From a virus: a DNA stretch of 64,000 nt. Below are positions 9,571 to 38,286 of the stretch, piece by piece. The notes under the pieces are model-generated. The model saw nothing but the letters and a program-made list of their open reading frames with translations. It ran no database searches and was not told the origin of the DNA. The DNA lies in the IMG/VR virus record IMGVR_UViG_3300027734_002590, positions 37,663-101,662 of that record. One strand, 5' to 3'. The position numbers were made by a program, and so were the translations under genes. Every line of letters begins with the position of its first letter. Within the stretch, counting starts at the first letter, position 1.

Positions 9571-9645
9571 TGGCGGGCCCTGCAGGAATTGAACCCACAT
9601 CGCATGGTTCGAAGCCACGTATTCTATCCATTGAACTAAGGGCCC
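9571..9645 (-). tRNA. tRNA-Arg(TCG)
   Basis: Cloverleaf GGGCCCT...CT-TCG-AA...GGGCCCGCCA. Confidence 0.9.
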
Positions 9646-10493
9646 GTATAACCGTAAACAGTTATCATTTTTTGCAATTCCCAAATGTCGACATCTGGGT
9701 GAGCTAGCGGAATTCTCCATCGGCATTGATCCCAACATGCATCGGTCCAGCCGTGACTAACTTTGTTGGCCTGTATCATAAATTCTCGCAAACGATCGAG
9801 TTCTCCCCAGGCCCAAAGGTGGTATGGAAATGTGTACATGTTTCGATGATACACACTAAACTCGTTATCTATACTATCCAACCAACGAAGTGTTTCTTCT
9901 TTACTAAGGTATTCGGGGATCATACTATGACCGTGGAATCCAAAACTAGGATGTTTTTTAACTGGTTCAGTTACTGAAAATTGTGCCGCAAGATCCACGG
10001 GCGGGTACTTAATGCCTTGACTTTCTAAATACGCACGACTACTGAGACTAATAACTTGATCTTCCAACATACCTATATCGCCGTCATCGACTTGCGGGCA
10101 GTTAGGAGTAAGGTCTAGTAGTTTTTTACTGCGCAAACTAAATCCGCCATTACCGATAGTCCACACATCATTTTTAAGCCAAGGCGCACCTATATAATCA
10201 TATTGTAAAAATTCATCTGTCCAGTATTCAGAATTAACTGGAAAGCCGTCGTACTGAACAAATAGAGCCCAACTGGTTGTAACATATTTGCCAACTTCTT
10301 GTAAACAGATGCGGGAATGTTCTATTCCATTAAATTTGTTTACCTTTACAAATGTATCACACGGATAAAAATCTTGATCGCTAAAGATTAGAATTTTGGC
10401 TTCGGGGAATATTTTTTTAGTGTAATCTAAGGCTATAGATGTTGCATTGTAGTTAAGACTATCTATTGCAACAATCGTTAAATCTTTTAACAT
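9636..10493 (-). CDS. DUF5672-like glycosyltransferase-associated protein
   Basis: QYDGF, YDYIGAPW, GNGGFSLRS and FGFHG motifs. Confidence 0.8.
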   Translation of the reverse strand: MLKDLTIVAIDSLNYNATSIALDYTKKIFPEAKILIFSDQDFYPCDTFVKVNKFNGIEHSRICLQEVGKYVTTSWALFVQYDGFPVNSEYWTDEFLQYDYIGAPWLKNDVWTIGNGGFSLRSKKLLDLTPNCPQVDDGDIGMLEDQVISLSSRAYLESQGIKYPPVDLAAQFSVTEPVKKHPSFGFHGHSMIPEYLSKEETLRWLDSIDNEFSVYHRNMYTFPYHLWAWGELDRLREFMIQANKVSHGWTDACWDQCRWRIPLAHPDVDIWELQKMITVYGYTGP

Positions 10494-19146: not shown

Positions 19147-19629
19147 TTAAATGTCGCCCTCGTGTGTCTTATTGGGGGTTATTAATCCCCATTCATTCAC
19201 CGTACCGTTAACATCGTATGATTTTTCTTGTTCATCGTAGGTCCATCCTAGCACCCGCATCATTTTATGTTTGACCAACAAGTTAGGTGCTCGGAAACGC
19301 TCGCAATCATTGAAGCCCATCATAACACCGACTTCGCAAACTGCACCACTGCGACAAATACCTGCGTGGCAATGTACAACAACGTTCATGCGATTTTCCT
19401 GGGCATGTTGTAACAGACGAACAAGCTGTTCTGCCTGCGCATCGGTAATGGCAAAATCGCTTTCTTCTTCAATGTCTAAGAATATAAATTGATGAACTTC
19501 TTTGAACTTGTGTTTTGGAGTTGGGAATGCCATGTCGTGATCCGAAATTTGGATCAGCATACTGTTCTCACCACATGCGTGATGCTTTCCTTTTGCTACA
19601 TTTTCCAATGGAATATTTTCAATCCACAT
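19147..19629 (-). CDS. protein-tyrosine/dual-specificity phosphatase-like protein
   Basis: VHCHAGICRS CX5R motif. Confidence 0.8.
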   Translation of the reverse strand: MWIENIPLENVAKGKHHACGENSMLIQISDHDMAFPTPKHKFKEVHQFIFLDIEEESDFAITDAQAEQLVRLLQHAQENRMNVVVHCHAGICRSGAVCEVGVMMGFNDCERFRAPNLLVKHKMMRVLGWTYDEQEKSYDVNGTVNEWGLITPNKTHEGDI

Positions 19630-19648
19630 GATACTCTCCTTAAAAATT

Positions 19649-19724
19649 TGGGGTGTCTTACGAGTATCGATCTCGTACTACCAGTTTCACAGACTAGGGT
19701 GCAGGCCACTACACTAAAGACACC
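19649..19724 (-). tRNA. tRNA-His(GTG)
   Basis: G-1:C73 pair; anticodon GTG; variant T-loop ATCGATA. Confidence 0.9.
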
Positions 19725-19733
19725 ATTGTTGAA

Positions 19734-19872
19734 TTTGCTTACCGTTATTCAATGTCCAAGTCAAACACGGAGCCCGGCATGGAGCCAGGCCTGCTACGGG
19801 CTTCAGGTACATTAACAAGTGTCTTGGGCGACTCGCTAATCACATATGGGTAACCGTACACACGTAAGCAAA
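19734..19872 (-). ncRNA. candidate 139-nt structured RNA
   Basis: Closing helix TTTGCTTAC/GTAAGCAAA; inner CCAAG/CTTGG and AGCCCG/CGGGCT. Confidence 0.6.
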
Positions 19873-19875
19873 ACT

Positions 19876-20049
19876 TTAAAAAGGTCGCCACTCTACACGA
19901 CCGTGTTGGTCTATTTTGGCGACACTTTGTTGTCTCTTAATTTCTACAAAATCTTTTTTCACAGTAATCACTTCTCCGCCACGCTTGACAAGATCGGTGA
20001 TCATTTGCTTTGCCAAAATATTAATAGGCTCAAAACGTTTTAGTTCCAT
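19876..20049 (-). CDS. small hypothetical protein
   Basis: MELKRF start after AAGGAGA RBS. Confidence 0.7.
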   Translation of the reverse strand: MELKRFEPINILAKQMITDLVKRGGEVITVKKDFVEIKRQQSVAKIDQHGRVEWRPF

Positions 20050-20064
20050 GACATTCTCCTTTAA

Positions 20065-20139
20065 TGGTCCGGCCAGCAAGAATCGAACTCACATTCAAGA
20101 GGTAGAAGCTCTTTGTATTATCCATTATACTATGGCCGG
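20065..20139 (-). tRNA. tRNA-Arg(TCT)
   Basis: 75-nt cloverleaf. Confidence 0.9.
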
Positions 20140-20145
20140 ATTGTT

Positions 20146-20225
20146 TGGTACCCCAGGCGGGAGTTGAACCCGCATTAAATTTCTCCTTTTGAGAGAGACG
20201 ACTTTGCCAATTTGTCCACTGGGGC
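20146..20225 (-). tRNA. tRNA-Leu(CAA), short variable region
   Basis: 80 nt; loop CT-CAA-AA. Confidence 0.85.
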
Positions 20226-20227
20226 AT

Positions 20228-20305
20228 TGGCGCGACTTAAGAGATTCGAACTCCTGACCCCCTGCTTCGTAGGCAAGTGCTCTGATCCAGCTGAGCTAAA
20301 GTCGC
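20228..20305 (-). tRNA. tRNA-Arg(ACG)
   Basis: 78-nt cloverleaf. Confidence 0.95.
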
Positions 20306-20311
20306 ATTGTA

Positions 20312-20387
20312 TGGTGGGTCGTGACAGTCTCGAACTGCCGACATTCTGCGTGTAAGGCAGACGCTCTACCAACTGAGCTAACGACCC
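20312..20387 (-). tRNA. tRNA-Val(TAC)
   Basis: 76-nt cloverleaf. Confidence 0.95.
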
Positions 20388-20437
20388 GAAAAGAAAAACT
20401 TCTAGCAGTATCTACGATACACCTAAAAGCCGTAATA

Positions 20438-20516
20438 TGGTCTCGGAAGTGGGATTCGAACTCACGATCTCCTGCTCCCAAAGCAGGCGCTTTAAACCGG
20501 ACTAAGCTACACCGAG
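20438..20516 (-). tRNA. tRNA-Pro(TGG)
   Basis: 79-nt cloverleaf. Confidence 0.92.
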
Positions 20517-20556
20517 AAATATTTTTTGGTAAATCTAGATTATTTTAAATACTAAA

Positions 20557-21441
20557 ATGTATATAAAACTAATATATGATCTTGACCAATTTATAACAAT
20601 AAGATTATTCGATAATACTGCTGTAACCAAATGGTTTACAAAATTCTCTGAGATTGAGTATCGACAGCATTATATAAATTCAAACACGACTAAACTTTTT
20701 GTACGTTTAAAACATCCTAAACTTAAAGTTAACAACTGGAATATCATACTTTCTACAATTAAAGATCTAAAATCTTTAGGCTACGTGTTCCCTTTTGAAC
20801 TTCCAAATAAGTTTACCAACGATCAAGAATTATTGAATAATCTACACAGGTTTTTTACGTATAACATTATGTGGGATCAGTCTAATGAAGTTAATCCGTA
20901 CGATACACAATTTCAAACTGATTTAAGTTTTGAACAATGGCACGATTTGCTTGATAAAATTAATCATGCTGTACACTGGTTAGAAGTTATCACTACTAAT
21001 CCGAATAAAAAAATATTAAACAAACTGCCTATGAAGTTCTTACATATACTACCAAAGCAAGGATCTCCTAAAACAGTATTAGGATTTGATCAAAATGATC
21101 AACTTCAAAACTTTACCTACTTTGACTATGACCAAAAACCACTAGTACTTTTAAGTGGATCGATCACAGGCAAAAGTATACTTGAAAGTTTTTTGACTAA
21201 CGATAATCCCACACTAAAAGATTGCACTGGAAGAACTATATCACACGGAGGATTTGTAATAGATCTAAATAATTCAAGATCCAAAATATATCAAAGCACC
21301 GAGTTTAGATCTTGGTATAATAAATTTAGTTTAACATCTCCTCTACCTTTAGAATTTCCTATAGGTCATGTAATAAATCCGGAGAAACTATCTTTAGTCA
21401 AACTATTACGTTTAAGAAAAGTACTGTTTTTAAATATCTAA
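20557..21441 (+). CDS. AT-rich hypothetical protein inserted antisense within the tRNA array
   Basis: 294-aa ORF, LNNLHRFF motif, TAAATA 5 nt before ATG. Confidence 0.75.
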   Translation: MYIKLIYDLDQFITIRLFDNTAVTKWFTKFSEIEYRQHYINSNTTKLFVRLKHPKLKVNNWNIILSTIKDLKSLGYVFPFELPNKFTNDQELLNNLHRFFTYNIMWDQSNEVNPYDTQFQTDLSFEQWHDLLDKINHAVHWLEVITTNPNKKILNKLPMKFLHILPKQGSPKTVLGFDQNDQLQNFTYFDYDQKPLVLLSGSITGKSILESFLTNDNPTLKDCTGRTISHGGFVIDLNNSRSKIYQSTEFRSWYNKFSLTSPLPLEFPIGHVINPEKLSLVKLLRLRKVLFLNI

Positions 21442-21442
21442 T

Positions 21443-21516
21443 TGGTTGCGGGAGGCGGAATCGAACCACCATCTGAAGCTTATGAGACTTCTGAATTACC
21501 GTTACTCTATCCCGCT
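21443..21516 (-). tRNA. tRNA-Met(CAT), initiator-like
   Basis: A1:A72 mismatch, GCGGG acceptor, CT-CAT-AA loop. Confidence 0.85.
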
Positions 21517-21522
21517 ATTAAA

Positions 21523-21599
21523 TGGTGCCCCAGAGGAGACTCGAACTCCTAAAATTTGGCTTCTAAGACCAACACGTATACCAATTCCGTCACCGGGGC
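21523..21599 (-). tRNA. tRNA-Leu(TAG), short variable loop
   Basis: 77 nt; Leu-type D-loop GGAATTGGTATAC. Confidence 0.9.
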
Positions 21600-21608
21600 A
21601 TAAACTTA

Positions 21609-21775
21609 CTATTAAAAAATAACATTACCCCTTACAGGACGGAGCGGATTTCTGAGTGGAGTTCGATTTTCCTCATCAGCCATTGCCCACGGTTTTATCA
21701 GAGGAGTAAGATGGCCCTATTCCTCATGAGCCTATGCGTCCATAAGCGATACCCGTTAATGCTATTTTTTAATGG
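21609..21775 (-). ncRNA. candidate 167-nt structured RNA
   Basis: Closing helix of about 19 bp CCATTAAAAAATAGCATTA/TAATGTTATTTTTTAATAG; inner GGACG/CGTCC and GAGGA/TCCTC. Confidence 0.65.
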
Positions 21776-21848
21776 TACTCGGTAGGGGAATCGAACCCCT
21801 CTTCCCGCCGTGAAAGGGCGGTGTCCTAGACCGATAGACGAACCGAGC
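21773..21848 (-). tRNA. tRNA-Glu(TTC)
   Basis: 76-nt cloverleaf. Confidence 0.95.
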
Positions 21849-21856
21849 AAAAACTT

Positions 21857-21885
21857 ATTATACAATAAGAATTTAATTTTGTCAA
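21857..21885 (-). promoter_or_regulatory. sigma70-type promoter internal to the tRNA array
   Basis: Perfect TTGACA-17-TATAAT. Confidence 0.85.
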
Positions 21886-21891
21886 CTATTT

Positions 21892-21965
21892 TGGCACGGG
21901 AACTAGGGCTCGAACCTAGAATGACAGAGTCAAAGTCTGTAGTGTTACCATTACACTATTCCCGA
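21892..21965 (-). tRNA. tRNA-Gln(TTG)
   Basis: 74 nt; U1:U72 mismatch, G73. Confidence 0.92.
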
Positions 21966-21975
21966 ACAGATTGAA

Positions 21976-22198
21976 TTTGTAAGCCTACGCCGCTTTTATC
22001 GTAGATTTATTCAGGACTTACCGGCCGCCTAGCCTGACCTCGAGCACGATGGATATCACTTGGGTACCTGTCCAGTTTAGTCGCCTCAATGGACCCCTGC
22101 AGTTCCCCGCAGGGTGGGTGTCGAACCCATCGCCTTCTACTGTTTCGGTCCTTCGAAGAAACCTAGACAGCGTGACTGTACTTGCTGACACTTACAAA
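21976..22198 (-). ncRNA. candidate 223-nt multi-hairpin RNA with a T-loop
   Basis: Closing TTTGTAAG/CTTACAAA; TGGG-TTCGACA-CCCA; CCCTGCGG-GGAA-CTGCAGGG; GTCCA/TGGAC; TCAGG/CCTGA. Confidence 0.7.
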
Positions 22199-22201
22199 AC
22201 T

Positions 22202-22277
22202 TGGTAGTAACGGTCGGACTCGAACCGACGATAAACACCGTATGAAGGTGGTGCATTAGCCACTATGCTACGTTACC
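22202..22277 (-). tRNA. tRNA(CAT), elongator Met or Ile2
   Basis: 76 nt; loop TT-CAT-AC. Confidence 0.85.
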
Positions 22278-22371
22278 ATATGTAAACACACTTCATGAGC
22301 ATGAGCTCACTTGTCTCCTTGCCCTAACTCTTGTGTTAAGGATCCGAAGGATAGAGTGTGTTTACATATGG
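22276..22371 (-). ncRNA. candidate 96-nt multi-branch RNA
   Basis: Perfect 17-bp helix CCATATGTAAACACACT/AGTGTGTTTACATATGG enclosing three hairpins. Confidence 0.65.
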
Positions 22372-22444
22372 TAGGACCGCCCGGACTCGAACCGGGAATT
22401 GGCAGATTAAAAGTCTGCTGTGATAACCATTTCACTACGATCCC
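22369..22444 (-). tRNA. tRNA-Lys(TTT)
   Basis: 76-nt cloverleaf. Confidence 0.95.
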
Positions 22445-22542
22445 ATATACAGTACTAAGTTGATTTAATGTGCCAACCTTAGACCGTACATGGGATCTAA
22501 GGAGACACTAACGTTTACTACGTTTCATGTCATTCTCCTTTG

Positions 22543-22770
22543 TTAAACTACTTTCTTAAGATACTCTGTACCTACCTTACCTTCTTGAATTTCAAGCAAT
22601 GCAGTTACATTTGGATGCAAATGCTCAAACTTCAAACTTTCTTTGTTACGTCGACTAATCTCACGTGAACGAACCGCGGCCATCAATACTAAATCATATC
22701 GATTGCCACCTGCAAGCTCAACACATTTATCGGTGTCGATTTCCGAACTACGACTGATACCTTTTTTCAT
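22543..22770 (-). CDS. rpoZ: RNA polymerase omega subunit homologue
   Basis: NRYDLVLMAAVRSREI and ALLEIQEGKV motifs. Confidence 0.88.
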   Translation of the reverse strand: MKKGISRSSEIDTDKCVELAGGNRYDLVLMAAVRSREISRRNKESLKFEHLHPNVTALLEIQEGKVGTEYLKKVV

Positions 22771-22789
22771 ATATTACCTTTTTAAAACT

Positions 22790-22865
22790 TGGTGCTACCT
22801 CCAGGGATCGAACCTGGTTCCTCGGTTCTTCAGACCGGTGCTATGACCACATCAGCTAAAGTAGC
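22790..22865 (-). tRNA. tRNA-Phe(GAA)
   Basis: 76-nt cloverleaf. Confidence 0.9.
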
Positions 22866-22866
22866 A

Positions 22867-22942
22867 TGGCGTACCCTCAGGGCCTCGAACCCCGAACCTC
22901 TGGTTTTGGAGACCAGCACTCTGCCAATTGAGCTAAGGATAC
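22867..22942 (-). tRNA. tRNA-Trp(CCA)
   Basis: 76-nt cloverleaf. Confidence 0.95.
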
Positions 22943-22948
22943 ATAATT

Positions 22949-23038
22949 TGGTCCCCCAGTGTGGAATCGAACCACATCCTGGACCTTATCTAGATTAATC
23001 GCTTATAAAACGACCTGCTCTCCTTGAGCTACTGGGGG
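22949..23038 (-). tRNA. atypical tRNA(TAT) with long variable arm (Ile by anticodon)
   Basis: CCCCCAG/CTGGGGG-ACCA; GTCGT-TTTATAA-GCGAT; variable region of about 21 nt. Confidence 0.75.
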
Positions 23039-23044
23039 AGCGTT

Positions 23045-23119
23045 TGGTATAGCGTACGGGGATCGAACCCGCCTAGTCACCTTGAAAGGGTGATGACCTC
23101 CCCAGAAGTCGAACGCTAT
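23045..23119 (-). tRNA. tRNA-Glu(TTC), second divergent copy
   Basis: 75 nt; TCACC-CTTTCAA-GGTGA. Confidence 0.9.
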
Positions 23120-23125
23120 ATAATT

Positions 23126-23199
23126 TGGAGCGGGATAGGAGAATCGAACTCCTGACTAAACCTTGGCAAGGTTTCGTTTGACCATTAAACTAATCCCGC
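23126..23199 (-). tRNA. tRNA-Gly(GCC)
   Basis: 74-nt cloverleaf. Confidence 0.95.
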
Positions 23200-23204
23200 A
23201 TACT

Positions 23205-23279
23205 TGGTGGAGGATGGGAGGATCGAACTCCCACTTCATGCTTGCAAAGCACATGTGCTCCCATTATCACTAATCCCCC
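23205..23279 (-). tRNA. tRNA-Ala(TGC)
   Basis: G3:U70 identity pair; anticodon TGC. Confidence 0.95.
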
Positions 23280-23286
23280 AATAAAC

Positions 23287-23363
23287 TGGCTCCCCGTCGT
23301 GGGCTCGAACCACGGACATCGACATTAACAGTGTCGCGCAACTACCAACTGTGCTAACGGGGA
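23287..23363 (-). tRNA. tRNA-Asn(GTT)
   Basis: 77-nt cloverleaf. Confidence 0.95.
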
Positions 23364-23370
23364 ATAAACT

Positions 23371-23445
23371 TGGTGCCCCAGGAAGGAATCGAACCTCCAC
23401 ACCCTGATTACAAAACAGGACCTCTACCACTAAGGATACAAGGGC
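23371..23445 (-). tRNA. tRNA-Thr(TGT), second copy
   Basis: 75-nt cloverleaf. Confidence 0.9.
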
Positions 23446-23453
23446 GTAAAACT

Positions 23454-23528
23454 TGGTAGCCTATCTTGGGAACGATCCAAGGACCCCCGCCTTATCAAGA
23501 CGGTGCTCTACCACTGAGCTAATAGGCT
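23454..23528 (-). tRNA. tRNA-Ile(GAT)
   Basis: 75 nt; variant T-loop ATCGTTC. Confidence 0.9.
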
Positions 23529-23533
23529 ATATA

Positions 23534-23621
23534 TGGCGGAGGATATAGGAATCGAACCTATCCACCCATTACTGAATGACAGTTTAGCAAACTGTTGCCT
23601 TAACCGCTCGGCCAATCCTCC
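23534..23621 (-). tRNA. tRNA-Ser(GCT)
   Basis: 88 nt with long variable arm. Confidence 0.95.
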
Positions 23622-23627
23622 ATAACT

Positions 23628-23702
23628 TGGCGATCCTGCGGGGAATCGAACCCCGATATCCGACTAGACAGGCCGGTATAATAACCACTATATGACAGGA
23701 CC
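23628..23702 (-). tRNA. tRNA-Asp(GTC)
   Basis: 75-nt cloverleaf. Confidence 0.93.
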
Positions 23703-23707
23703 AAATT

Positions 23708-23796
23708 TGGTGGAGATGATAGGATTCGAACCTATTGCGTTTCTTAAGTACCGGATTTACAGTCCGGGGCCACTCCACCATCGTAGCCGCATCTCC
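23708..23796 (-). tRNA. tRNA-Tyr(GTA)
   Basis: 89 nt; CCGGA-CTGTAAA-TCCGG. Confidence 0.92.
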
Positions 23797-23806
23797 AAAT
23801 TTATTA

Positions 23807-23940
23807 ACACTCTCCGGCTATGCCTGTCCAGGGCCCGAATGGACGTCCCTAAGGAGAGTGTGTATTAAAACATACTGATAACGCCTGCTATGCAGTACCA
23901 GACTATGGGTTTGGCCGTCCCTTTCAATATGCTTTAATAC
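23807..23940 (-). ncRNA. two adjacent related small structured RNA candidates
   Basis: Helices ACACTCTCC/GGAGAGTGT and 17-bp GTATTAAAGCATATTGA/TCAGTATGTTTTAATAC; shared AGGGACG...GCATAGC core. Confidence 0.6.
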
Positions 23941-24045
23941 GCTGTAATTTTTCATCTCACAAAAGAGACTTCATCCTACAGGCCGCCCGTTTACTACTGT
24001 TTAGCGTGTGTAGCGAGGACCTCGTTTCCCCTACCACGTTGTACT

Positions 24046-24210
24046 TTAGTTTACACTAAACGTTGGACATTTGTTCAACGATTCACTGTAAATTTTAGCA
24101 CGTTCAAACTTATTTTGAATAAGTTTTTGAAATTGTTCTTTAGTTAGAACACTTTCATAAGCCTGTTCAACAATTCGTTCATTCAATTTTTCGTAATCTA
24201 TCTCTGTCAT
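24046..24210 (-). CDS. small hypothetical protein
   Basis: MTEIDY start after AAGGA RBS, first ORF after the terminator. Confidence 0.6.
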   Translation of the reverse strand: MTEIDYEKLNERIVEQAYESVLTKEQFQKLIQNKFERAKIYSESLNKCPTFSVN

Positions 24211-24229
24211 TTTTTCCTTTTGTAAAAAC

Positions 24230-24259
24230 AAAAAACCCTGGGTTTTTAATCCAGGGTCC
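24230..24259 (-). terminator. intrinsic terminator (attenuator terminator)
   Basis: GGACCCTGG-ATTAAAAAC-CCAGGGTTT followed by TTTGTTTTT. Confidence 0.85.
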
Positions 24260-24286
24260 TTGAAGTTTTGAAATGTAATTAAGTTG

Positions 24287-24436
24287 TTACTTAACCATCC
24301 CAGCCCCCCGGACCCTTGTAATCTCTACTGGTAAACGATCTGAATGTAGACTATTGATCGCTAACCAATAAGAGGGCATTACGCCGCCTTGTTTGGCTAT
24401 CGTATTCAGTTGTCTAAAATTACAGGTTGCTTTCAT
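24287..24436 (-). CDS. putative attenuator leader peptide (49 aa, all 20 amino acids)
   Basis: MKATCNFRQLNTIAKQGGVMPSYWLAINSLHSDRLPVEITRVRGAGMVK*, between promoter and terminator. Confidence 0.7.
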   Translation of the reverse strand: MKATCNFRQLNTIAKQGGVMPSYWLAINSLHSDRLPVEITRVRGAGMVK

Positions 24437-24494
24437 TTCTGTTTCCAGTTCTCTTTCTTTAAAAATTACATCGTTATCTCTAACGTATGTGTAT

Positions 24495-24715
24495 ATTGTA
24501 TGATCTTTTGCACTTGCTGTCAACCCCTACTTGCATCTTTTTTGTTGTATTTTTACAACGGTGATTTGCCTGTAGACAGTTTCTAGCGTATGTCTATATT
24601 ATGTACTTATTTATCTCTCTTGTCAACCCCTATATAATAGGCCGATTTTGAATCGTTGTAAATTTACAACAGTGATGTTATAATTTATATTAGCATCAAG
24701 AACGCGGCCTGTCAA
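24495..24715 (-). promoter_or_regulatory. three tandem sigma70-type promoters heading the tRNA array
   Basis: TTGACA-17-TACAAT (24495-24523), TTGACA-17-CATAAT (24598-24626), TTGACA-17-TAATAT (24687-24715). Confidence 0.75.
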
Positions 24716-24753
24716 TCTGAGCCGCTGTAAATAATAACAACAAAGGAACTTAT

Positions 24754-25299
24754 ATGCAAATCTACAGACTCGAATCAGATGCCTTTGTAGTCACGTTCAA
24801 CCAATTCAAAGACAACCGAGGATGGTTTTCTGAAACATGGTCAGACAAGTGGCTACCAGACCTAGGCATTCCATCTCCCTTCGTCCAACAGAACACAGTT
24901 TGGACAGAAAATAAAAATACCATTAGAGGATTACATGCACAATCTGCACCAGCAGAGGTTGCAAAATTTATCCGAGTGATTAAAGGCAGTATCTTAGATG
25001 TGTTTGTCGATGCTCGTCAACAAAGTCCAACATTTGGTAAATGGTTTAGTTATGAACTGAACGAATCTACTCCACAGATACTTTACATTCCAACTGGTTT
25101 TTATCACGGGTATATGACTTTAACAGATGATGTTATTGTTCACTATCAACAAGATGCATTCTTTGAGCCTGCATATGAGCAAGGTTTGATATGGAATGAC
25201 CCAACACTACAAATTGATTGGCAGTTAAACGGTGCAGTACCCGTTGTTTCAACAAAAGATGCACAACAACAGACTTGGGATCAAGTCCACAAATTTTAA
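24754..25299 (+). CDS. rmlC: dTDP-4-dehydrorhamnose 3,5-epimerase
   Basis: DNRGWFSE, RGLHAQ, SPTFGKW, GFYHG. Confidence 0.92.
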   Translation: MQIYRLESDAFVVTFNQFKDNRGWFSETWSDKWLPDLGIPSPFVQQNTVWTENKNTIRGLHAQSAPAEVAKFIRVIKGSILDVFVDARQQSPTFGKWFSYELNESTPQILYIPTGFYHGYMTLTDDVIVHYQQDAFFEPAYEQGLIWNDPTLQIDWQLNGAVPVVSTKDAQQQTWDQVHKF

Positions 25300-25308
25300 G
25301 AGGCAAAA

Positions 25309-25977
25309 ATGGCAAGCAAAATAGCAATGACAGCAATTCACACTCATCACATTAAGCCGATGAGTGATATGACTTGGGAAGGCAACAAACTTCAATACGC
25401 TGAAAAATGGGGATATGATACGTATGTTCGCACAGAAAGCACAATGGAATGGCATCCAAGTTACGAAAAAATATTCTTTCAACTGCAATTATTAGAAGAG
25501 CATCCAGAACACGAATGGTTGTACTGGAGTGGTGCTGACAGTATCATCACTAACTTTAACATTCCGTTAGAAACGTTTGTTGATGATGACTACCATATTA
25601 TTATGGCTACTGACCGTTTGAATATTAATGCAGACAGTTATTTGATTAAGAATAGTCCAGAAGCTCGTGCATATTGGAAACACATTTGTGATCTAGCACC
25701 TCAATATAATGCTCATCCTAGTGGAACTTGGGAACAGCAGGCTCTTATTGATACTATTGCAGAATATAGACACTTGTGGAAATTTATGCCACAGCGTCAT
25801 ATGAACGCCTATCTATACAGAGAAGTTTATCCACAACACTATATTACAGGCACACATGACTATCTCGGCTATGACGGACAGTGGCAACCGGGCGATTTCC
25901 TATTACATTGGCCCGGTACACCTATGCAATTACGTATGCAGATGATTCCTCATTTTATGCAAATGGTGGTTAGATGA
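25309..25977 (+). CDS. GT34-like glycosyltransferase
   Basis: YAEKWGY, SYEKI, DSIITN, WEQQAL, GDFLLHWPG. Confidence 0.75.
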   Translation: MASKIAMTAIHTHHIKPMSDMTWEGNKLQYAEKWGYDTYVRTESTMEWHPSYEKIFFQLQLLEEHPEHEWLYWSGADSIITNFNIPLETFVDDDYHIIMATDRLNINADSYLIKNSPEARAYWKHICDLAPQYNAHPSGTWEQQALIDTIAEYRHLWKFMPQRHMNAYLYREVYPQHYITGTHDYLGYDGQWQPGDFLLHWPGTPMQLRMQMIPHFMQMVVR

Positions 25978-26777
25978 AGGTATTTGTTACCGGGAGTGCC
26001 GGATTTATTGGTAGCAAACTAGTAACTTACTTTAAGTCTCAAGGACACGAGGTTGTACATCCTATACGTCAAGAACTTGATCTAGCTAACTTTCAACAAG
26101 TAGATAAGTTTTTTAATGAACAGAGTATAGATGCAGTAGTTCATTGTGCTGTTGCAGGCCGTACTAACATGGTCGGACAGGATAATGCCATCTCAGGTGA
26201 GATCGTTAACATGATCAGTAACTTGTATAGAAACAAGGGCAAGTTTAATCGATTGATTAACGTAGCTAGTGGATACGAGTTTGATCACTTTCGTCCAAAT
26301 AATTTAGTTAGCGAAGCAACTATTGAATCGGTGTTGCCCAAAGCCAGCTACGGACTAGGCAAGAACCTTGCTAGCCGTATTGTAAGAAGCACAGACAATT
26401 GGGTAAACTTACGGTTGTTTGGGATGTTTCATGAGGATGAGTCAGACATACGTTTCTTTAAAAAGTTAAAAAGCGGAACAGGTGCTTTTACTATAGACGA
26501 AGATCGGCAGTTTGACTTTGTCTACTTAAATGATACCTTACCGATGTTTGATCTAGCATTAGCAGGAAATTTAAAACACAAAGATATTAATCTAGTCTAC
26601 CCTGAAAAACATTATATGGGTGAATTAGTAAAATACTTCTGTGAAGTTAACAACGTTAACAGGGAAGTAGCAGTCAACAAGCAAGGCACTAATCATTATA
26701 CAGGTGCATGGAATCGTTGGCAAGAATACGAGTATCCTCGTATTGGGCTTAAAGAAGCTCTTAAAAAATACAATTAA
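25974..26777 (+). CDS. NAD-dependent epimerase/dehydratase
   Basis: TGSAGFIGS and YGLGK motifs. Confidence 0.88.
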   Translation: MKVFVTGSAGFIGSKLVTYFKSQGHEVVHPIRQELDLANFQQVDKFFNEQSIDAVVHCAVAGRTNMVGQDNAISGEIVNMISNLYRNKGKFNRLINVASGYEFDHFRPNNLVSEATIESVLPKASYGLGKNLASRIVRSTDNWVNLRLFGMFHEDESDIRFFKKLKSGTGAFTIDEDRQFDFVYLNDTLPMFDLALAGNLKHKDINLVYPEKHYMGELVKYFCEVNNVNREVAVNKQGTNHYTGAWNRWQEYEYPRIGLKEALKKYN

Positions 26778-37177: not shown

Positions 37178-38286
37178 TATTTTTGTGTTAATGATATTAT
37201 GGTATTGTTACCTTGATTAACACGGTTCTTAAATTCAATATTATTTTGTGTCATATATAATGTTGAATTTTGAGTTTGAGGTGTTGTTATACACATACGA
37301 TCAGCACCGTTATCACGACATAGTGTAACTGTCGGATCGTCCTTGGTAACAATGATGCCACTGGCTTTTTTATAGTCAGGCAACATACTGTCAACTTCTT
37401 CTAGCAATTTTTCATTAAGGGCATTACCAACCATGTCAAACATATTGGCTAGAAAATTATTATCTAAAAAATTACGACTAAGTTTGTCTTGGAAGAATTG
37501 ACGAGCACTATCATCTAGCGCATTAGTAAGTCCTTGCTCTTTTAGGAAATCAACATCCAACGGACCACGCATATCTCTACGTTGGTCTTTGTTATTGTCT
37601 TTTTTCATTTCATCAGGAGTTGATATTAATAAACTTTCAATAGCATTTTCGCTAAGGTTTAATGTTACAGGTTTACTAGGAGGAGAGCTACGACTGTTTA
37701 CTTTAGTTGCTTGAAATGGTTGATTTAGGATAACCATTCCAGCATCTGTTTCTACGCTGATCTCTCCTGTATGACAACTTGACTCAATGTCTTTAATTGA
37801 TCGTGTAGTTCTATTTGTGGGACAGCTGGGCAACAATATAACTGTTGACTGTCCGAGTTCGTCTACTGAGGCTGTGAAGTCTGTGCCACGTACAGAGATA
37901 GTTGCTGTTGGGGTATTAAGTGCTACGTTCTGTGGGCTGTTCTTGGCAATCTGTCCACTAGCATAACGAACAGTACCTAATGCCATCTTAGCACTTAGTT
38001 TACCGCTTTTACTTTTTGGATCGTAGACAAAATCGTCAATTACAAGTTTACTATTTTCGTTAACTTGAACTTTTGTATCATCTTGGAAAGTTATTCCTAA
38101 TTTTCCCGACTGCGTTCTGATCGAGTCGTTCATCTCCACTCCTGTGCCCTTGGCGCCCGTTAGTGTTTGTTTGTCCCGCTGGATGCTGGCCGGTGTGTTG
38201 ACCTGCTCGGTTACTGTTCCGACTGCGGCGCGACTCAACGAGGTACTTAGCAACAGCGAGCATAGTACGACTATCCATGTTTTCAT
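37177..38286 (-). CDS. FecR-domain protein
   Basis: Signal peptide; ITFQDDT.V, TPTATISVRGTDF. Confidence 0.88.
   Translation of the reverse strand: MKTWIVVLCSLLLSTSLSRAAVGTVTEQVNTPASIQRDKQTLTGAKGTGVEMNDSIRTQSGKLGITFQDDTKVQVNENSKLVIDDFVYDPKSKSGKLSAKMALGTVRYASGQIAKNSPQNVALNTPTATISVRGTDFTASVDELGQSTVILLPSCPTNRTTRSIKDIESSCHTGEISVETDAGMVILNQPFQATKVNSRSSPPSKPVTLNLSENAIESLLISTPDEMKKDNNKDQRRDMRGPLDVDFLKEQGLTNALDDSARQFFQDKLSRNFLDNNFLANMFDMVGNALNEKLLEEVDSMLPDYKKASGIIVTKDDPTVTLCRDNGADRMCITTPQTQNSTLYMTQNNIEFKNRVNQGNNTIISLTQK

Follow-up and report, generated by a model that had tools for sequence, protein, structure and literature searches.

Transcription attenuators in which the supply of amino acids or of their aminoacyl-transfer RNAs (aminoacyl-tRNAs) decides between termination and read-through have been described in several forms. 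In the classical attenuators (i.e., trpL, hisL, leuL, thrL, pheL and ilvL), the codons of one to three amino acids, matching the biosynthetic genes, are repeated in runs of 2-7 within a short leader open reading frame (ORF), and a 1:2 pause or anti-antiterminator hairpin ensures that no translation means termination. T-box riboswitches, which precede Gram-positive aminoacyl-tRNA synthetase and amino-acid genes, bind one specific uncharged tRNA directly by way of a specifier codon and work without a ribosome. In the TnaC leader, binding of free tryptophan halts translation at the stop codon, and Rho is blocked. For phages, the control and purpose of large tRNA sets constitute an open question, for which the current explanations invoke codon usage, decay of host tRNAs and evasion of anticodon nucleases. 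In this work, we analyzed a window of 64,000 nucleotides (nt) of viral DNA (positions 37,663 to 101,662 of IMG/VR record IMGVR_UViG_3300027734_002590), focusing on a candidate attenuator that was pointed out in an earlier note on this DNA, in which a 49-codon leader ORF and an intrinsic terminator stand ahead of a phage tRNA array.

The closest published system is the upstream ORF (uORF) attenuator of whiB7, in which stalling on the uORF leads to formation of an antiterminator and to read-through (Poulton et al., bioRxiv 10.1101/2023.06.02.543512, PMC10274678). Knock-downs of biosynthesis, tRNA and synthetase genes tied to 18 of the 20 amino acids activate this switch, and the composition of the uORF sets what is sensed; for instance, one Trp codon is enough for Trp starvation to be sensed, and removal of this single codon ends the response to Trp (Poulton et al., bioRxiv 10.1101/2023.06.02.543512). 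The Mycobacterium smegmatis uORF contains 19 of the 20 amino acids and that of M. tuberculosis fewer; among species the uORF sequence is strongly variable, it is enriched in Ala, and several species are devoid of several amino acids (Poulton et al., bioRxiv 10.1101/2023.06.02.543512). This system shows that sensing of many amino acids through single codons works. The phage locus resembles whiB7/wblC in having an ORF followed by a choice between antiterminator and terminator, and in its broad amino-acid representation, which here amounts to all 20 amino acids in 71 of the 80 leaders that we collected. Conversely, whiB7/wblC is actinobacterial and controls a transcription factor for antibiotic and alanine stress, whereas a 54-aa protein and tRNAs lie downstream in this T4-like phage; moreover, the whiB7 uORF is Ala-enriched, while Ala accounts for about 5% of the phage leaders and complete coverage is itself conserved. 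No sequence relationship would be expected between the two systems, and the phage element has sigma-70 promoters and, in some cases, leaderless leaders. A survey of the full-text literature returned no such leader described before phage or cellular tRNA genes. Within this survey, the statement of the earlier note that no described example was known holds for phages and for tRNA genes, but the whiB7 uORF is a published stalling sensor for many amino acids.

With the classical attenuators, the phage locus shares the short leader ORF, the intrinsic terminator and an antiterminator that uses the terminator 5' arm, as well as, by our prediction, the deciding role of ribosome position. It differs from them in that the leader contains one codon per amino acid instead of a run of cognate codons, in having tRNAs as the regulated genes, and in that the naked RNA is predicted to read through, no covarying 1:2 hairpin having been found. 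Considering the comparative and folding analyses presented here, we regard it as probable that the locus is a ribosome-mediated leader-peptide transcription attenuator whose ORF serves as a test piece with at least one codon for each amino acid.

All features of the switch lie on the minus strand, at the places where the earlier note had put them. In 5' to 3' order, two promoters are followed by the 49-codon ORF, the terminator, a 54-codon ORF, about 250 nt without an ORF, and 30 tRNA genes interspersed among ORFs. The promoters that the earlier note had seen ahead of the leader were identified as two sigma-70-type sequences, each with an 11/12 consensus match: a distal one (24598..24626, minus strand; GGGGTTGACA-17-CATAAT, with TTGACA as the -35 element and GGGG just before it) and a proximal one (24495..24523, minus strand; GGGGTTGACA-17-TACAAT) located 58 nt 5' of the leader ATG. 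The leader ORF itself (P0001; 24287..24436, minus strand) starts with the ATG at 24436 and ends with the TAA at 24289-24287, comprising 49 codons plus the stop. Its 49 codons include 39 distinct ones, and all 20 amino acids are reached within the first 38 residues, with 4 different codons for Ala, 3 for Ile, 4 for Arg, and 3 each for Thr, Leu, Ser and Val; our recount agrees with the earlier note on all of these figures. Among the 141 ATG ORFs of 30-55 codons in the window, the leader is the only one that contains all 20 amino acids, a property displayed by 2.9% of the 49-residue windows in the phage's own genes. When codon diversity was compared with length-matched gene windows, as the earlier note had proposed, only 0.04% of these contained at least 39 distinct codons. 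By themselves, these coverage statistics of the window are suggestive; the comparative data are compelling.

Homologous loci were searched for using as anchor the conserved 54-aa product of the ORF that adjoins the leader (P0002), which provided 36 and then 54 viral contigs, as well as 68 metagenome contigs, and three loci were added with the leader peptide as query. After removal of duplicates, 80 distinct leaders were obtained from viral and metagenome contigs of related uncultured freshwater T4-like giant phages; 32 of them were used for the in-depth analyses of structure, promoters and alignment (27 belonging to the main clade), and 22 loci were scanned for tRNAs. An ATG ORF of 34-53 codons, ending 45-62 nt before the terminator T-run, is present in all 80 leaders. 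Likewise, each of the 32 loci displays a promoter with a 10-12/12 sigma-70 match, at one of two distances upstream of the ATG (44-67 nt or 6-10 nt). The short distance corresponds to leaderless forms found in several divergent lineages, in which the -10 element ends 6-10 nt before the ATG, the spacing in the main clade being 44-61 nt. The preservation of both ATG and frame through these leadered and leaderless rearrangements, as read from the sequences, argues that translation matters. A tRNA array was found downstream in 22 of the 22 loci scanned; the arrays of relatives, where the earlier note had advised to look, are preceded by leader ORFs that conserve amino-acid coverage, with the peptide sequence weakly kept.

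Of the 80 leaders, 71 have complete amino-acid coverage, among them peptides of 35 and 38 residues, and length-matched gene windows would lead us to expect 1.85 such leaders among 80. The probability that a given peptide contains all 20 is 0.2-4.9% if drawn from the pooled composition of the leaders, in which Ser is the commonest residue (12.6%) and Ala represents 5.3%, and 1-18% under a uniform composition. On average, 6.8 amino acids per leader are present in a single copy, and no codon forms a run. Cys appears exactly once in 70 of the 80 leaders, yet it is spread over 19 alignment columns, which indicates that composition is under selection, rather than sequence. Columns occupied by other residues number 15 for His, 16 for Tyr, 17 for Phe and 19 for Lys, and essentially one for Trp. 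Shuffling the residues within the columns of the main clade left on average 5.9 of the 27 peptides with all 20 amino acids, and never more than 12 in 2000 trials, whereas the real set is complete in 27 of 27. Furthermore, in 28 of 32 leaders the complete set is already reached in the part of the ORF that stops 0-7 codons short of the 5' arm of the antiterminator described below.

The earlier note had read the leader as a pan-tRNA sensor and had stressed its codon diversity. Given the peptide, the number of distinct codons is only about 8% above expectation (1136 vs 1053, summed over leaders) and individually significant in few of them, and the codons readable by the phage's own tRNAs make up 86% of leader codons vs 84% of genome codons. 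Owing to this slight codon excess, and to the lack of enrichment for codons read by phage tRNAs, the pan-codon reading was demoted to a pan-amino-acid one: complete amino-acid coverage stands, while synonymous-codon diversity barely surpasses what would be expected. Judging from these comparisons, selection maintains a codon for every amino acid, and thereby acts at the amino-acid level and not at the codon level.

An ORF that is kept, always with its ATG, in 80 of 80 homologues might also encode an ordinary small protein followed by a normal terminator, with an incidental overlap of the hairpin. We consider this very improbable, since the ratio of nonsynonymous to synonymous substitution rates (dN/dS) is 0.66 N-terminal of the hairpin and 1.08 in the hairpin part, values that speak against an ordinary protein, and since searches of the leader peptide in Pfam and PHROG gave no family match. 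Additionally, leader peptides are less than 40-50% identical between lineages vs 55-83% for the adjoining P0002, and this explanation would leave both the covarying overlap of antiterminator and terminator and the complete amino-acid coverage without a rationale.

Regarding the RNA, the predicted antiterminator hairpin (24253..24316, minus strand) has AGGGTCC (24316-24310) as its 5' arm and GGACCCT (24259-24253) as its 3' arm, with the stop codon placed at the tip of the inner helices. RNAfold assigned -28.0 kcal/mol to this structure (AGGGUCC/GGACCCU, GGGG/CUUC, UGGGAUG/CAUUUCA and GUUAAGU/ACUUAAU), in which the UAA stop extends from the final base of the stem into the apical loop. The intrinsic terminator (24224..24261, minus strand) is formed by AAGGACCCUGG, a 9-nt loop and CCAGGGUUUUU, pairing 24261-24251 with 24241-24231, followed by a T6-G-T5 tract, and folds with -14.8 kcal/mol; an automated terminator scan missed it, as its loop limit was 8 nt. 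The GGACCCT segment is common to the terminator 5' arm and the antiterminator 3' arm. The long hairpin with the stop codon at its apex that would sequester the terminator 5' arm, as drawn in the earlier note, was in this way reproduced by folding.

This arrangement is maintained in the relatives. Predicted energies range from -20.6 to -34.6 kcal/mol for the antiterminator and from -14.8 to -21.3 kcal/mol for the terminator, the antiterminator being the stabler of the two in 32 of 32 leaders; also in 32 of 32, the antiterminator sequesters 7-14 nt of the terminator 5' arm and contains the stop codon, so that none of these homologues lacks the mutually exclusive pairing on which the proposal of the earlier note depended. 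The covariation that the earlier note suggested looking for was detected in the outer helix of the antiterminator, which is 96.4% paired over the 32 sequences, with 3 compensatory pairs (15 cells), a level reached by none of 500 shuffles; with the partner slid by one column, pairing dropped to 65% or less. Variants of this helix include GGGTCC/GGACCC, GGGTTC/GAACCC and GGGGTTTCATA/TATGAAACCCC, and duplexes between cognate 5' and 3' arms are more stable than non-cognate ones (-15.3 vs -12.5 kcal/mol; p<5e-5). Outer-helix covariation was counted on the fixed columns of the alignment (A1), and the terminator was assessed by folding each sequence, as register shifts blur its count on A1. RNAalifold on a plain MAFFT alignment of the 3' segments returned no structure, divergent members being misaligned. 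Overall, comparison of the homologues establishes a conserved ORF, predicted structures that are mutually exclusive and covary, a selected coverage of all 20 amino acids and a conserved linkage to tRNA arrays.

A structured RNA switch that works without translation (e.g., a riboswitch, a T-box-like element or a protein-binding leader), with the open frame as a by-product, would be in line with the conserved nucleotide blocks and the strong alternative structure of the leaders, and with their weak Shine-Dalgarno match. The phage locus shares with T-boxes the choice between terminator and antiterminator ahead of translation-related genes and, on our reading, the sensing of tRNA charging; it differs from them in having a conserved ORF and no Rfam T-box match. 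A scan of 15000-26000 yielded only tRNAs and chance matches, with no Rfam family, T-box included, in the leader region at E<=1. Frame, ATG and the position of the stop in the hairpin survive many indels as well as the leadered and leaderless shifts, and the presence of all 20 amino acids with turnover of their positions would be selectable through translation only. For these reasons, a switch independent of translation appears extremely improbable to us, even more so than the ordinary small protein.

To explore the role of ribosome position in the attenuator, the ribosome was mimicked by a 27-nt stretch held single-stranded during folding. The terminator was part of the minimum free energy structure in 7 of 32 leaders as free RNA, in 8 of 32 with a ribosome at mid-ORF, and in 27 of 32 with a ribosome at the stop codon. 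For the leader of the window, P-site positions at codons 1-36 favored the antiterminator and those at codons 37-48 the terminator, codon 49 being borderline; the antiterminator 5' arm lies nearer the stop codon in most relatives than in the window. In the window's own leader, the arm is exposed when the ribosome is at the stop, and the proposal of the earlier note that a finishing ribosome melts the antiterminator would need timing, a trailing ribosome or steric effects to apply there.

According to the mechanism that we propose, host sigma-70 RNA polymerase would start at the upstream promoters and a ribosome would load on the 49-codon leader. On a naked leader RNA, or with a ribosome delayed in the first ~36-37 codons, the antiterminator would fold and hold the terminator 5' arm, allowing the polymerase to go on through the gene of the 54-aa protein and the non-coding stretch to the tRNA genes. 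If instead the ribosome kept pace, it would cover or unzip the 5' arm of the hairpin (codons 37-48), whereupon the terminator would form and transcription would end. No protector hairpin takes part in this scheme, which would otherwise correspond to classical ribosome-mediated attenuation. Since the leader includes all 20 amino acids, most often in one copy each, the shortage of any single aminoacyl-tRNA would raise transcription of the tRNA operon, and such a shortage might come from cleavage or loss of tRNAs, from uncharged tRNA or from a general slowdown of translation. In this scheme, the translation of the leader ORF, the direction of the switch and its natural signal are the parts that we infer. 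The central claim of the earlier note, a stalling-sensitive attenuator before a tRNA array, is supported by the 71 of 80 leaders with complete coverage, the covarying antiterminator and the weak constraint on the peptide.

Stalling could alternatively be caused by the peptide itself, as in arrest peptides of the TnaC, SecM or Erm-leader type, with a Trp ... Asp-Arg-x-Pro-Glu stall on a small molecule or factor setting the switch and the complete coverage being secondary. Trp is invariant in one column of the 32 aligned leaders, and in the main clade D-R and P-E are nearly invariant, including at the codon level (GAT in 27/27 and GAG in 26/26, with ATT AAT AGT CTA almost fixed); this motif ends just 5' of the antiterminator 5' arm. 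There is also a likeness to TnaC, in that Trp, Asp and Pro are conserved in a short leader peptide that precedes a termination decision; however, the phage terminator is intrinsic, the spacing of W, D and P is unlike that of TnaC, and the motif is missing in divergent members. Indeed, it is absent or different in divergent leaders that contain all 20 amino acids and keep the switch (L036, L039, L082 and L086), the overall dN/dS is 0.66, and an arrest peptide would not account for the persistence of Cys, His, Tyr, Phe and Lys, each mostly in single copy, at shifting positions. We therefore judge this explanation improbable.

Several points weigh against the attenuator as we propose it. Translation of the leader and termination are predictions from sequence and folding, metatranscriptome contigs being blind to RNA ends, and the Shine-Dalgarno match of the leader is weak (AGAG/GGAA). 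Nine of the 80 leaders are devoid of 1-3 amino acids, and three phages with complete leaders have contigs devoid of 1-2 tRNA species. The invariant Trp (one column in the 32 aligned leaders), together with the low synonymous variation of the conserved D-R-x-P-E segment, hints at an additional constraint. In the window, with the stop codon in the A site, the antiterminator 5' arm is uncovered and naive energies favor the antiterminator again; in these folding models, termination would thus need a ribosome on codons 37-48 at the moment of decision, a trailing ribosome, or steric effects. The Glu codon (codon 38) is on the border of the sensing zone. Neither a pause hairpin nor an anti-antiterminator hairpin with covariation was found in the leaders; a candidate CGAUYA...UGAUCG hairpin is 88.5% paired in the alignment, with one compensatory cell, and is absent in divergent leaders. 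Lastly, consensus promoters are present inside the tRNA array, so the distal tRNAs need not depend on the switch.

The relationship between the leaders and the tRNAs they precede was also addressed. A leader with all 20 amino acids coincides with tRNAs for all 20 amino acids in the phage of the window and in the related loci L003, L037 and L038. The leader of L040 is devoid of Lys only, and its array has neither tRNA-Lys nor tRNA-Phe; a close relative, L162, has a leader devoid of both Phe and Lys, and the sister phage L038, whose leader is complete, carries both tRNA-Lys and tRNA-Phe. In L045, the leader is devoid of Phe only, and its contig lacks six tRNA species, Phe included. The chance that both of the missing leader residues in these two long contigs fall among the missing tRNAs is about 0.03, a value to be read with the caveat that contigs are incomplete. 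These patterns hint at a co-evolution of leader composition with the tRNA repertoire.

The same observations bear on the purpose of the switch. Provided that the mechanism holds, we see about an even chance that it acts as a homeostat or timer of phage tRNA supply, or as a sensor of translation capacity, and not as an inducible counter-defence; it would terminate early in infection, or while aminoacyl-tRNAs suffice, and open as host tRNAs decay or demand rises. This role would be consistent with the leaders of L040 and L045, whose missing residues are also without a tRNA in the arrays while sister phages differ in both together, with promoters that resemble constitutive early sigma-70 promoters, and with the precedent of whiB7, which responds alike to starvation and to tRNA and synthetase knock-downs. 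On the other hand, the match between leader and tRNAs is partial, as illustrated by the three complete leaders with 1-2 tRNA species absent and by L045, where six tRNA species compare with one residue; leader codons are no more readable by phage tRNAs than genome codons are (the 86% vs 84% given above); and the sequence does not separate a defense-triggered from a physiological tRNA shortage. Counter-defense against tRNA-depleting immunity is one possible use, and a general sensor of aminoacyl-tRNA supply fits equally well. The strictest version, in which the complete ORF is a test gene that solely reports aminoacyl-tRNA availability, switches on its own tRNA operon, co-evolves with the tRNA repertoire (a residue being dropped along with its tRNA gene) and answers tRNA-cleaving defenses or phage-induced decay of host tRNAs, seems rather doubtful to us, and we put it forward only tentatively.

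The first gene reached by read-through is that of P0002 (24046..24210, minus strand), whose ribosome-binding site lies directly 3' of the terminator T-run. P0002 is always located between the attenuator terminator and the tRNAs, and displays 21 invariant columns in 18 homologues, with the motif IDYxKLNERIVEQAYE...QKLIQDKFERA...PTFSVN. It matched no Pfam or PHROG family, had no usable match in Atlas, and a tblastn comparison with 50,697 cultured phage records revealed no homologue; as the first product of read-through, it might act as a regulatory factor or in connection with tRNAs. It is followed by a non-coding spacer of about 250 nt that reaches the first tRNA (23797..24045, minus strand), with no ORF of note, no Rfam family at E<=1 and candidate small RNAs. 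The 30 tRNAs of the window (from 23796 down to 9571) cover all 20 amino acids. According to ARAGORN, the proximal block (21892..23796, minus strand) comprises 16 of these (Tyr ... Gln), together with an ORF of 75 aa resembling the RNA polymerase omega subunit (22543..22770, minus strand; Pfam RNA_pol_Rpb6, 2e-8) embedded among them; 14 more tRNAs, interleaved with ORFs, constitute the distal region (9571..21848, minus strand). Six promoters with an exact consensus match are found in the window, against 0.26 expected by chance, and among these are two internal promoters with TTGACA-17-TATAAT, one immediately before tRNA-Glu (21857..21885, minus strand) and another about 50 nt before tRNA-Cys (18455..18483, minus strand). 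The earlier note had described the terminator as being followed by an array of non-coding RNA, tRNAs and rpoZ; the array is indeed there, but the intervening 54-aa gene and the internal promoters had been missed. What the attenuator surely gates is only the proximal block, i.e., the 54-aa gene, the non-coding stretch, the first 16 tRNAs and the rpoZ-like gene. If read-through occurs, this homologue of omega (Rpb6 family) is co-transcribed with the proximal tRNAs.

Some tRNA genes of these arrays display unusual features. A tRNA of 90-95 nt that has a long variable arm and the anticodon UAU (Ile, AUA) is encoded at 22949-23038 (minus strand) of the window and is conserved in the clade (L007, L008, L010, L019, L024-L026, L030, L039 and L040). 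In the array of L013 (4105-4173), ARAGORN called a tRNA-like gene with a four-base anticodon (ttga), possibly of the frameshift-suppressor type or a degenerate copy, and in that of another related phage (L167, 1483-1575) a tRNA-Ser with the unusual anticodon ACT. ARAGORN also called transfer-messenger RNAs (tmRNAs) about 2-3 kb upstream of the leader in L012 (902-1318) and L025 (49-447), with tags that end in ...FAMAA and ...FALAA, respectively; these two related giant phages thus seem to carry their own ribosome-rescue RNA.

The source record is an IMG/VR virus record of 101.7 kb, estimated to be 28% complete. The RIIA homologue of this phage is 35-38% identical to RIIA of Aeromonas T4-like phages, and contigs of its relatives reach 300-356 kb, from which we conclude that, by homology and size, the source is an uncultured freshwater T4-like giant phage; the runs that contain the sequence are metagenomes from lake, river and freshwater samples. 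When the region was compared with cultured phages by blastn, tRNA-Tyr was the sole match, and the tRNA region of Aeromonas phage vB_AdhaM_G2 (5.1 kb) contained no small ORF with all 20 amino acids; the switch element was not found outside this uncultured clade in searches of cultured phages, which is no proof of its absence. With respect to RNA data, a metatranscriptome contig spans 24426-24576, which bears on the distal promoter, although DNA carry-over is possible. In four RNA runs, parts of the leader, of P0002, of the non-coding stretch and of the tRNAs were present, but only in short assembled contigs, some of them from relatives, that are blind to RNA ends, strand and level. An apparently greater metatranscriptome depth over the leader than over P0002 was discarded as evidence, since only short assembled contigs are available. 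Upstream of the switch, the palindromes GTTGTAAATTTACAAC and GTTGTAAAAATACAAC, perfect or near-perfect, are located at 24655-24670 and 24544-24559 (minus strand), about 20-30 nt 5' of the -35 element of each promoter; the same GTTGTA-N4-TACAAC motif is found again upstream of the leader promoter in many related loci (e.g., L010, L012, L016 and L018) and might be the operator of a DNA-binding regulator. A sugar-nucleotide gene set that diverges from the leader promoters occupies 24754-26777 (plus strand); its first gene encodes a dTDP-4-dehydrorhamnose 3,5-epimerase (Pfam, 1e-55), and two more ORFs (222 and 267 aa) come next.

Synthetic sensors of translation stress could be built on the compact design of the leader switch. 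If the proposed mechanism is true, no earlier attenuator is known to us in which complete amino-acid coverage is selected, and the switch would be a natural reporter of aminoacyl-tRNA sufficiency contained in a single transcript; an amino acid whose only codon was taken out of the leader should then no longer elicit a response when in short supply. For the phages that carry it, the composition of the leader should track the tRNA repertoire from one phage to another, and the switch would constitute the first regulatory logic described for phage tRNA genes.

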